Positions 7,825-10,510 of a stretch of 10,619 bases of DNA are shown piece after piece. How positions within the stretch are numbered: position 1 is the first letter of the stretch; the number at the start of each line of letters is the position of its first letter. This stretch comes from Candidatus Wukongarchaeum yapensis (GTDB lineage Archaea; Asgardarchaeota; Wukongarchaeia; Wukongarchaeales; Wukongarchaeaceae): assembly GCA_016840425.1 (NCBI GenBank), contig JAEOSI010000059.1, positions 1-10,619 of the forward strand. The letters run 5' to 3'. The notes under the pieces were generated by a model, which made no database searches, was not told the DNA's origin, and saw only the letters and a program-made list of their open reading frames with translations. The position numbers were made by a program, and so were the translations under genes.

Positions 7825-8439
7825 TCATGTTGAAGCGGATTTGAAGAGAAAGTCTTTCAATTTTCCATCATAATATTTGGTAGCCGGGCAGCCTAAACAA
7901 TGTTTTTTTTGAAACTTCTCGCATTCTTTACAGTTAAGGTTGCAAGGCGTTACCTCTTTGTTTGTTTGTGTGAGCTGTAATCGTATGGGCATGAAAGGCG
8001 GGAAAAGCTGTGTTCCGACATGGAGAACGTTGCTCCTACGGATTCCGGGGAATGTTCTTATAACACATGAGGTAAGTATTGTTTCAAGGGTTTGTTTGTT
8101 CTCTGCGTACACGATTGCCATAAGGTCGTATTCACCGATAATGCTTGTAAGCTGAATGATTCGTGGACAGTTCTTGAAAGTGTTGACAATTTCTTGTTTC
8201 TTTTCAGAATTTTCAGTTTCAATCAAAACTACCACGATTTCTAGGTTCAATTTGGAAGGGTTTACGCCTATGTAAGGCTTTATGAACTGTTCTTCCTTGA
8301 GTTTTAGTAAGCGTTCTCTTACGGTTACGTGGGATAATCCGACTTTTCTGCCGAGCTCGGAAAGAGAAATTCGAGCGTTTTCTGCTAAAAGCGCCATGAT
8401 ATGAATGTCAACATCGTCAAGCTTTTTTTCTCGAGCCAT
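7825..8439 (-). CDS. Lrp/AsnC family regulator with C-terminal Cys-rich extension
   Basis: LDDVDIHIMALLAENARISLSELGRKVGLSHVTVRERLLKL HTH; TSIIGEYDLMAIV RAM-domain motif; tail CNLNCKECEKFQKKHCLGC. ATG 8439 preferred over TTG 8448. Confidence 0.93.
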   Translation of the reverse strand: MAREKKLDDVDIHIMALLAENARISLSELGRKVGLSHVTVRERLLKLKEEQFIKPYIGVNPSKLNLEIVVVLIETENSEKKQEIVNTFKNCPRIIQLTSIIGEYDLMAIVYAENKQTLETILTSCVIRTFPGIRRSNVLHVGTQLFPPFMPIRLQLTQTNKEVTPCNLNCKECEKFQKKHCLGCPATKYYDGKLKDFLFKSAST

Positions 8440-8450
8440 TTTAATCAACT

Positions 8451-8476
8451 TACAATTTGTAGGATAAAACTTATAA
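8451..8476 (-). promoter_or_regulatory. TATA box and palindromic operator candidate of the Lrp gene
   Basis: Minus-strand TTATAAGT at 8476-8469 and perfect palindrome TACAA-T-TTGTA at 8451-8461 between TATA and start codon. Confidence 0.45.
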
Positions 8477-8616
8477 TTATCTACATATTAAAAGATTTCG
8501 TATAAGTTTTATTAAAAAATAAAAAATTGAGACAAATATCGGTGTTATTTTGCTTATTTGCCCATAAATATGGAGCCGATAAATCGAATAGTTAAAGAGA
8601 AGGTTTGTGGGTAGAG

Positions 8617-9447
8617 ATGGAGCCCATATATATTATTGCTCTAATAATAACGGGCATAGCAGTAGGTTTCTTTGGTGGAATGCTTGGGGTTGGTGGATGT
8701 TTCATAATGGTTCCGGTGATGATCGCTGTTTATTCCGCTGCTTATCCAAGCGCATCTACAGACACTATAGTGAGATTAGCCTTCGGAACAAACCTTTTAG
8801 TAGTGTTTCCAACAGCGATGATGGGCGCATATAACCACGATAAGAAGGGCGCTGTTTGGTGGAGAGCAGGATTGTACATCGGAGCGTTCACAGCGATCGG
8901 CGTTGTAGTTGGGGCGATACTTGCAGCACATACCCCTGGAGCTACGTTAAAGGCTATTTTCGGTGCAGCAGTTCTTATTGGCGCTGTTAGAATGATCACC
9001 GCAAAGCCGCCTAAAGTTGGAGAAGAACCCATCAAAGATCTTCGAATTTGGTTGGCTGTAGGCGTTCCTATGGGCGTAGTTATCGGCCTAATAGGAATAG
9101 GCGGCGGTTTACTCATGGTACCCCTTATGGCGATAATACTACACTTTAAGATACATAACGCGGTGGGGACTTCTACAGCGATTATGATGATAACATCGAT
9201 CATAGGCGCGATCGCTTACGCTTTAAACGGCTTGAACGTTTCTGATCTACCGGAGTACTCAATAGGATACGTGAACTTGTTGGCTTGGATATGTTTAGCG
9301 GCAACGAGTGTCCCGATGGCAATAGTCGGGGTCAAAGCTGCACACAAAACAAAACCAAAAGAACTAAAGAATATATTCGCCATAGTTCTGTTCTATGTCG
9401 GCTTAAAAATGATCGGCGTATTTAAAGTATTAGGCTTGCCTTTGTAG
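8617..9447 (+). CDS. TauE/SafE family sulfite/sulfur-compound exporter
   Basis: Two GxxGxGGG repeats (GGMLGVGGCFIMVP; GLIGIGGGLLMVP), AVGTS motif, about eight hydrophobic segments. ATG 8617 preferred over GTG 8605. Confidence 0.92.
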   Translation: MEPIYIIALIITGIAVGFFGGMLGVGGCFIMVPVMIAVYSAAYPSASTDTIVRLAFGTNLLVVFPTAMMGAYNHDKKGAVWWRAGLYIGAFTAIGVVVGAILAAHTPGATLKAIFGAAVLIGAVRMITAKPPKVGEEPIKDLRIWLAVGVPMGVVIGLIGIGGGLLMVPLMAIILHFKIHNAVGTSTAIMMITSIIGAIAYALNGLNVSDLPEYSIGYVNLLAWICLAATSVPMAIVGVKAAHKTKPKELKNIFAIVLFYVGLKMIGVFKVLGLPL

Positions 9448-10439: not shown

Positions 10440-10510
10440 TCTAACCACCTTTCCTTCTTTCATCCTCTTTTAATCATTTTATTTTACATTTTGTTATCCT
10501 TGTTCCTCTC

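Follow-up and report, generated by a model that had tools for sequence, protein, structure and literature searches.

A cysteine-tailed Lrp/AsnC regulator of a large archaeal subfamily, encoded divergently from a TauE/SafE permease in Candidatus Wukongarchaeum yapensis

Contig JAEOSI010000059.1 of the Asgard archaeon Candidatus Wukongarchaeum yapensis (assembly GCA_016840425.1), whose 10,619 nucleotides are referred to here as the window, carries a divergent pair of genes, one for an Lrp/AsnC regulator that ends in a cysteine-rich tail and the other, tauE, for a TauE/SafE membrane permease. The regulator belongs to a large, almost purely archaeal and uncharacterised subfamily of full-length Lrp/AsnC regulators, in which the conservation of the cysteines is far beyond chance. 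Lrp proteins are the main family of archaeal transcription factors and are regarded as amino-acid sensors. We give an even chance to the view that the window's regulator is a local, autoregulated regulator of tauE, with a centre of six cysteines (Cys6) that would bind a metal or an iron-sulfur (Fe-S) cluster. The two genes are the following:

7825 to 8439, minus strand: gene of the cysteine-tailed Lrp/AsnC regulator, 204 amino acids (ATG at 8439, stop at 7825-7827)
8617 to 9447, plus strand: gene of the TauE/SafE (TSUP family) membrane permease, 276 amino acids (PF01925, E 4e-51)

The open reading frames, as read in the window, extend from 7825 to 8448 on the minus strand and from 8605 to 9447 on the plus strand. 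Within them, the starts at ATG 8439 (MAREKK...) and ATG 8617 (MEPIYII...) are preferred, because the alignment with homologues favours both, and with these starts the two genes are separated by a spacer of 177 bp (8440-8616). The regulator gene has a convergent UbiX gene as its neighbour and tauE a convergent corrinoid-protein gene, and both the regulator gene and tauE look monocistronic. A previous sequence-only reading of this DNA had described an Lrp with a helix-turn-helix (HTH), a RAM domain and a five-cysteine tail, sharing a 177-bp spacer with tauE, a description with which both the Pfam searches and the reading of the open frames agree. The parts of the regulator are:

8296 to 8421, minus strand: AsnC-type winged HTH (PF13404), residues 7-48, with the recognition helix SHVTVRERL
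8026 to 8229, minus strand: RAM (AsnC ligand-binding) domain (PF01037), residues 71-138, containing Cys91 and Cys125
7870 to 7947, minus strand: cysteine tail, residues 165-190, PCNLNCKECEKFQKKHCLGCPATKYYDG, its five cysteines kept in 56 of 56 sequences
7828 to 7869, minus strand: extra C-terminal helix KLKDFLFKSAST, absent from most homologues and modelled by AlphaFold2 (AF2) as a low-confidence helix at 194-202

The tail is spelled C166-NLN-C170-KE-C173-EKFQKKH-C181-LG-C184, that is, C-x3-C-x2-C-x7-C-x2-C. The family consensus is APCGxxCxxCxRY-x4-CLGCPATKYYRG, the motif in relatives reads APCGxxCxxCxRY-x4-CLGCPATK(Y/F)YRG, and most homologues end shortly after it, two residues past this motif or about 10 residues past CLGCPATKYY. 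The spacing of the last four cysteines is that of a zinc ribbon (CxxC-x7-CxxC), and the first three form a CxxxCxxC motif, which is common in cubane ligation. In total the regulator has seven cysteines, all of them in conserved columns: the five of the tail and the two which the sequence-only reading had placed in the RAM domain, and which are indeed there as C91 (codon 8167-8169, within the motif CPRI) and C125. All seven are invariant in an alignment of 53 relatives. A wider set of 56 sequences, spanning several archaeal phyla and enlarged by 50 loci taken from GTDB genomes, by this genome's paralogues and by further Asgard relatives, keeps C91 and the five tail cysteines throughout (100%), and C125 in 48 of the 56. 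Two tail-less Lrps, P0055 and that of contig C232 in this genome, have no cysteine at the position of C91.

The core to which the tail is attached is that of an ordinary Lrp. Pfam recognizes HTH_AsnC (PF13404) with an E-value of 7.9e-14 (51.6 bits against a cut-off of 27) and the AsnC/RAM domain (PF01037) with an E-value of 1e-7 (31.9 bits against a cut-off of 25), while the named Lrp equivalogs of NCBIfam (LysM, ChrS and LrpA) are matched below threshold only. A monomer model, built by AF2 from an alignment of 38 sequences, reached a predicted local distance difference test (pLDDT) score of 90.9, with the RAM domain arranged as strands 67-75, 94-99, 106-112 and 133-140 and helices 78-88 and 115-125. 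In a Foldseek search with the full model, the top matches were all Lrp/AsnC structures (7fby, 2dbb, 2cyy and 2cg4, with TM-scores of 0.80-0.88 normalised by target over some 145 columns); the Lrp core alone was matched, and the tail was absent from every solved Lrp among these matches.

The tail itself is predicted with confidence only in its context. Beside the RAM domain it has a pLDDT of 88-91 and is mainly coil with one short helix; modelled in isolation, its pLDDT is 64.5, and a VIA-align comparison of this isolated model with 48,161 chains gave zero matches at Z>=2. A Pfam scan of the tail alone at E<=10 returned only noise (ribosomal protein L32, E 0.06) and no domain match, and no PDB sequence reached an E-value below 0.08 when either the tail or its profile was used as query. 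Since C91 is invariant, the tail was never found without the Lrp core and a good model is obtained only beside the RAM domain, we read RAM and tail as one integrated unit: alignments and models point to C91, C166, C170, C173, C181 and C184 forming together an invariant six-cysteine RAM-plus-tail module. Thus, of the idea that a sensor had been grafted on an Lrp, the part that stands is that the tail is a real conserved addition, and the part that is given up, in view of C91 and of the context-dependent model, is that it is an independent domain.

A likeness to DUF3795 had also been proposed, on the basis of the cysteine spacing, and it holds for the first half of the tail. The Pfam profile (PF12675, cut-off 22.6 bits) does not match the tail even at E<=10, and a search of the whole genome for DUF3795 at E<=0.1 retrieved C61 alone and no Lrp tail. 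Of 81 Asgard genomes searched, 50 contain DUF3795, and 29 of the proteins were gathered for comparison. These proteins start with (A)PCGLxCxxCxxY, followed by CxGC some 30 residues further on, and hhalign aligned the tail profile to them with a probability of 94% and an E-value of about 1e-7 over 18-19 columns; the controls gave 5% with the reversed profile and 0.2-13% with eight shuffled ones. The downstream cysteine groups of DUF3795 (C..C.IR.C and C..C..F/YPC) are absent from the tail. With its 83 profile positions, about 12 cysteines, some 30 residues between the two elements and two more cysteine groups, the DUF3795 domain has parts that the tail lacks; moreover, DUF3795 proteins are small, cysteine-rich proteins of anaerobes, which have no HTH or RAM domain, unlike the regulator. 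Judged by these profile comparisons, the tail has the N-terminal CGxxCxxCxxY element of DUF3795, and like DUF3795 it has a CxGC further on, yet it is no DUF3795 domain. The literature search found nothing on the chemistry of DUF3795. As a separate observation, Asgard genomes hold up to 12 copies of DUF3795 each, some of them in open frames of 313-374 amino acids that may be fused forms.

As regards the extent of the family, a word-indexed search retrieved 53 relatives, mostly of 182-204 amino acids and covering 92% of the query, from Archaeoglobi (including P0038 of A. fulgidus), Bathyarchaeia, Asgard lineages and others. With the tail profile as query, an exhaustive HMMER search at E<=1e-3 extended this to at least 203 clusters (50% identity), almost all of them from archaea. 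Nearly all the matches are 180-210 amino acids long, with the tail, of some 30 residues, at the extreme C-terminus. Ten matches of odd length were scanned with Pfam (nine with hits and one with none), and no other domain adjoins the tail in them; the Lrp core is kept and the extra parts are N-terminal. Three proteins, P0062 and P0102 (454-455 amino acids) and P0196 (362 amino acids), join the cysteine-tailed Lrp core to an N-terminal KaiC-like ATPase or response-regulator receiver domain. In the ESM Atlas, seven archaeal Lrp clusters of 50-481 members, the largest from Thorarchaeota, show the same tail fold; the Atlas feature search gave no usable match. No description of an Lrp with this cysteine tail was found in the literature, in searches that covered DUF3795, Lrps with a cysteine extension and archaeal sulfite sensors, and the family appears to be undescribed so far.

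The second element of the locus, the pairing with TauE, is recurrent. The product of tauE matches PF01925 over all the profile positions (1-237 of 237) with 174.5 bits against a cut-off of 32.6, and no NCBIfam equivalog was found for it; a sulfite or organosulfonate substrate is suggested by the name of the family only. The neighbours of the family were counted in 50 loci from other genomes, 41 of which hold a full-length regulator, and TauE genes were scored within 3.5 kb. TauE is by far the commonest neighbour family (14 of the 41 full-length loci), and it adjoins the regulator directly in nine loci: adjacent and divergent in L014, L018, L028, L035 and L046, immediately downstream and in the same orientation in L020, L021 and L034, and immediately upstream in L042. 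Since the 2.16-Mb genome studied here has three TauE paralogues, adjacency by chance would be expected in about 1% of cases, and the pairing is about 30 times above chance. In a maximum-likelihood tree of the regulators, the TauE-paired members fall in at least four places, namely the window's own long branch, a Culexarchaeota/Nitrososphaerota clade (3 of 3), Methanomassiliicoccales and Archaeoglobi (9 of 21). The neighbourhood survey that the sequence-only reading had put forward as a check thus bears out its pairing, with TauE in 14 of 41 loci and at least four clades against the 1% expected. The TauE of the window shares 49-52% identity with its paired counterparts in Archaeoglobi and Methanomassiliicoccales.

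The third element is a set of candidate regulatory sites in the spacer:

8450 to 8462, no strand assigned: candidate operator TTACAATTTGTAG, a TACA-N3-TGTA palindrome of 13 bp, 11 nt upstream of the regulator ATG
8470 to 8477, minus strand: TATA-like element of the putative regulator promoter, TTATAA, located by sequence reading
8564 to 8571, plus strand: putative TATA-like element ATAAATAT, about 46 nt upstream of the tauE ATG, located by sequence reading

The candidate operator sits between the TATA-like element and the start of the regulator. TACA-N3-TGTA sites number one in the window and 12 in the whole 2.16-Mb genome, and that of the window is the sole one located in a promoter; a genome-wide scan for further promoter targets of the window's box found none, and the perfect TTACA-N3-TGTAA form occurs nowhere in this genome. 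A second one-mismatch box (TTACATTTTGTTA) is present at 10484-10496 of the window, just upstream of the extended frame of the corrinoid-protein gene (ATG 10463/10439), and may be either a chance match or a weak second site.

The relatives are more informative. The recognition helix of the window's regulator is shared by a Bathyarchaeia/Hadarchaeota clade (SHVxVRxRL), and in five Bathyarchaeia loci (L009, L010, L012, L013 and L017) the box (G)TTACA-N3-TGTAA(C) lies 9-29 nt upstream of the regulator start, with a one-mismatch copy in the Hadarchaeota locus L011; the window, L013 and L017 have the same core, TACAAATTGTA. Only nine TACA-N3-TGTA sites occur across 454 kb of loci; these five are among them, each no more than 100 nt upstream of the regulator, and another two fall in neighbouring promoter regions. 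In the Archaeoglobi/Culexarchaeota clade both the recognition helix and the box differ. The box there is GTTTA-N5-TAAAC, with 33 sites in the 454 kb: 15 up to 150 nt upstream of the regulator and nine just past its stop, where they front TauE (L020, L021 and L034), the CMD-TauE-ACR3 genes of L022, or TDT and other neighbours. This box is also found within the short spacers to divergent TauE genes in L014, L028, L035 and L046. There is, therefore, good comparative evidence from these sequences that members of the family bind beside their own gene and before the adjacent transporter. What singles out the window's box as a candidate operator is solely its conserved position across loci, and the predicted autoregulation of the window's regulator is well supported by this comparison.

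Two further signals in the spacer were set aside, a 12-nt perfect inverted repeat (8464-8475 / 8501-8512), which is at about chance level for such an AT-rich spacer, and the output of a sigma-70 promoter scan, which is inapplicable to an archaeon. The spacer also contains a 20-nt direct repeat, 80% identical (8565-8584 / 8612-8631), which copies the start of tauE (ATGGAGCC, MEPI). Its upstream copy starts an upstream open reading frame of 14 codons that ends 2 nt before the tauE ATG; this frame may escape transcription, because it overlaps the presumed TATA element.

TauE is not the only partner of the family. Recurrent neighbours include the arsenite efflux protein ACR3 (8 loci, above the TIGR00832 cut-off), an ArsP_1-type permease together with a thioredoxin-like protein (7 loci) and an ABC-2 exporter (11 loci), as well as TehA/SLAC1-type (TDT) channels, MFS transporters, ArsR, ArsC-like proteins, AhpD/CMD, Usp, PF04060 Fe-S proteins and NifX-like proteins. 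In Methanocella, AOR and a ferredoxin adjoin the regulator, and in the Archaeoglobi locus L022 the order regulator-CMD-TauE-ACR3 is found on a single strand. Export of thiophilic anions, together with thiol or Fe-S chemistry, is the shared theme, though not an exclusive one. Contrary to what the sequence-only reading would suggest, the tail is tied neither to TauE nor to sulfur, the same module being found beside ACR3, ArsP-type, TehA-type, ABC-2, MFS, AOR and NifX/MinD genes. In five Archaeoglobi loci (L020, L022, L027, L031 and L043), TauE clusters with ACR3, ArsC-like, AhpD/CMD, Usp and a small AbrB/MazE-like protein, which suggests that the TauE subgroup of these loci belongs to a metalloid or thiol-stress island.

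The genome of Candidatus W. yapensis also holds several members of the family. A whole-genome profile search showed that six of its seven AsnC-type HTH regulators have the cysteine tail, and these paralogues are found next to, among others, NifX/MinD-like genes, an MFS gene and a pair of corrinoid methyltransferase genes. On contig C167 (1984-5303, L093) a cysteine-tailed paralogue is located between two NifX-like (Nitro_FeMo-Co) genes; two further genes lie between this pair, and their N-termini look similar to those of MinD/Mrp-type P-loop ATPases. Contigs C217 (13351-14120, L095) and C95 (3-1040, L094) contain near-identical cysteine-tailed Lrp units in one stop-free open frame, in the order tail, linker of about 37 amino acids and next MDNTDG... 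unit, with CLGCP changed to CVGCW. Contig C217 terminates and C95 starts within a unit of this kind, and the two are probably either a tandem array split by the assembly or a fused multi-Lrp protein. Finally, a 65-amino-acid open reading frame on contig C23 (9819-10016; L098:4820-5017, minus strand) consists of a degenerate tail only (APCGANCQEYPLREEYDCNGCPATVHY), which lacks the third cysteine, and is either a remnant or a stand-alone mini-protein.

Taken as a mechanism, the view of a local regulator of tauE runs as follows. The Cys6 module would carry a metal centre, either a zinc site or an Fe-S cluster, both of which fit the sequence. The regulator would bind the palindrome at 8450-8462, which separates the TATA box of its own gene from the start codon, and thereby repress itself, while an Lrp oligomer wrapping DNA from the 177-bp spacer may control the divergent tauE. 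The state of the cysteine/metal centre could set oligomerisation or DNA binding, replacing or adding to an amino-acid ligand, and thiol-reactive species (sulfite, polysulfide, thiophilic metalloids or oxidants) might alter the centre, so that the anion exporter would be made upon their accumulation. The control of tauE is a step that we infer by analogy, from the DNA wrapping of Lrp-type proteins and from the divergent activation model of CopR.

Several observations weigh against this mechanism. The control of tauE is less certain than the autoregulation, because some 100 nt separate the box from the TATA element presumed for tauE. The window contains two one-mismatch copies of the TTACA-N3-TGTAA box against 0.6 expected, a number that is not significant alone. 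In a sample of 60 genomes, the closest Asgard orthologues of the TauE protein (56, 43 and 40% identity) have no cysteine-tailed regulator within 1.5 kb, and the closest Asgard orthologue of the regulator (50% identity, G020) faces a protein with multiple winged HTH domains, not TauE. Moreover, TauE substrates have been established for very few members of this permease family. Lastly, the presence of the tail in six of seven regulators, together with their diverse neighbours, is as compatible with a structural module as with a sensor.

This last point leads to the strongest alternative, in which the six cysteines make up a purely structural zinc site, a zinc-ribbon-like clasp joining the C-terminus to the RAM domain, and the RAM pocket takes up a small molecule as the signal, as it does in classical feast/famine regulators; in that case the tail would be uninformative on sulfur or redox. 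We hold this to be possible, if unlikely. It would account for the zinc-ribbon spacing of the last four cysteines, for the weak match to ribosomal protein L32 (E 0.06-0.08), for cysteines that are invariant regardless of the neighbouring gene, including those of the tailed paralogues beside unrelated genes (corrinoid methyltransferase, MFS, NifX/MinD), and for a tail that is never found apart from the RAM domain. It sits less well with the number of invariant cysteines, which is six and not four, with the CxxxCxxC of the first three, typical of cubane Fe-S ligation, with the match to the very cysteine-rich DUF3795, and with neighbours that are strongly enriched in transporters of thiophilic anions (TauE, ACR3, ArsP-type and TehA-type) and in thiol-redox proteins.

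A second alternative is that the regulator autoregulates only, or acts elsewhere, and that tauE is a mere neighbour with a constitutive promoter of its own. The position of the box, beside the regulator start and about 155 nt from the tauE ATG, is what such an arrangement would predict, the Asgard orthologues mentioned above are unpaired, and a tauE homologue of A. fulgidus, AF1562, is reported to be constitutively and highly expressed (PMC3949148). This alternative is nevertheless improbable, given a pairing that recurs in at least four clades at about 30 times the chance level, a family box that lies directly before TauE in the tandem loci, and a window box that is found in no other promoter of this genome. 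Finally, direct binding of a soft metalloid or metal (As(III), Sb(III), Cd or Cu(I)) by the tail thiolates, as in ArsR/CadC or CopR, with the adjacent permeases acting in metalloid efflux, is very improbable: it has in its favour the Archaeoglobi and Bathyarchaeia regulators in or near clusters with ACR3, ArsC-like, ArsR and ArsP_1 permease plus thioredoxin genes, the single-strand order of L022 and the CopR precedent (PMC7830388), but the window has no ars gene nearby, the same clusters already hold ArsR-type regulators, and S3 sites need three cysteines, usually varying among paralogues, whereas six are invariant here in all contexts.

Within the view of a metal-bearing local regulator, a bolder version would have the RAM-plus-tail Cys6 module ligate an Fe-S cluster. 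The Lrp family would then gain its first branch that depends on Fe-S, with sensors widespread among archaea that respond to sulfur, redox or thiol-reactive anions; the one in this locus would switch on the TauE exporter. We consider this version doubtful and rather unlikely. If it were true, these proteins would parallel the Rrf2/FNR-type sensors of bacteria, would be the dominant Lrps in some Asgard archaea and would provide a first candidate for an archaeal sensor of sulfite-type stress. On a more general level, the invariant six cysteines, their presence in six of seven regulators here and the sulfite-, arsenite- and tellurite-type exporters nearby suggest an unstudied form of sulfur, metal or redox sensing in anaerobic archaea. 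The window offers a compact test system for it, with one regulator, one 13-bp box and one divergent permease. Furthermore, TauE-mediated release of sulfite has been proposed within a syntrophy between Asgard archaea and bacteria (bioRxiv 10.1101/2025.07.22.663070), and a regulator of tauE is therefore of interest.

The regulator can be compared with known archaeal proteins. SurR and MsvR are archaeal transcription factors with cysteines that react to the state of sulfur or oxidants; built on ArsR-type or V4R architectures, they use simple CxxC disulfides as switches and are not known to have homology to the RAM domain or to the tail.

The classical archaeal Lrp/FFRP proteins (LrpA, 1i1g; FL11/PH1519, 2cyy and 2e1c; PH0140, 7fby; PH0061, 2dbb) share the two-domain fold over about 145 residues, and also the palindromic box of 13-15 bp over the regulator's own promoter; LrpA of P. 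furiosus autorepresses its own promoter (cited in PMC7830388). They differ from the window's regulator in being tail-less proteins of about 140-155 amino acids, with no conserved cysteines and with amino acids as effectors.

By its sequence, the window's regulator is an Lrp with a probable metal-type C-terminal module, and a precedent for such a cysteine-bearing C-terminus is CopR of Pyrococcus furiosus and other Thermococcales (PF0739), an Lrp/AsnC copper sensor with a C-terminal TRASH domain, which is encoded divergently from copA, forms an octameric Lrp assembly and acts both as repressor and as activator (PMC7830388). In both cases an Lrp-type HTH and oligomerisation core is followed by a short cysteine-containing C-terminus, and an exporter gene is divergent, this second likeness being one of layout only. 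The TRASH motif of CopR (C-x19-22-C-x3-C) and its histidine stretch are absent from the regulator, and a Pfam scan of the tail for TRASH/YHS at E<=10 gave no match; the regulator has instead the C-x3-C-x2-C-x7-C-x2-C motif plus an invariant RAM cysteine, unlike CopR, and the partner of CopR is the CopA ATPase whereas its own neighbour is the TauE permease. Since the tail motif differs and TRASH is absent, we place the regulator outside the CopR group. By analogy, CopR is nonetheless the closest functional precedent for an Lrp with a metal-sensing, cysteine-based C-terminus.

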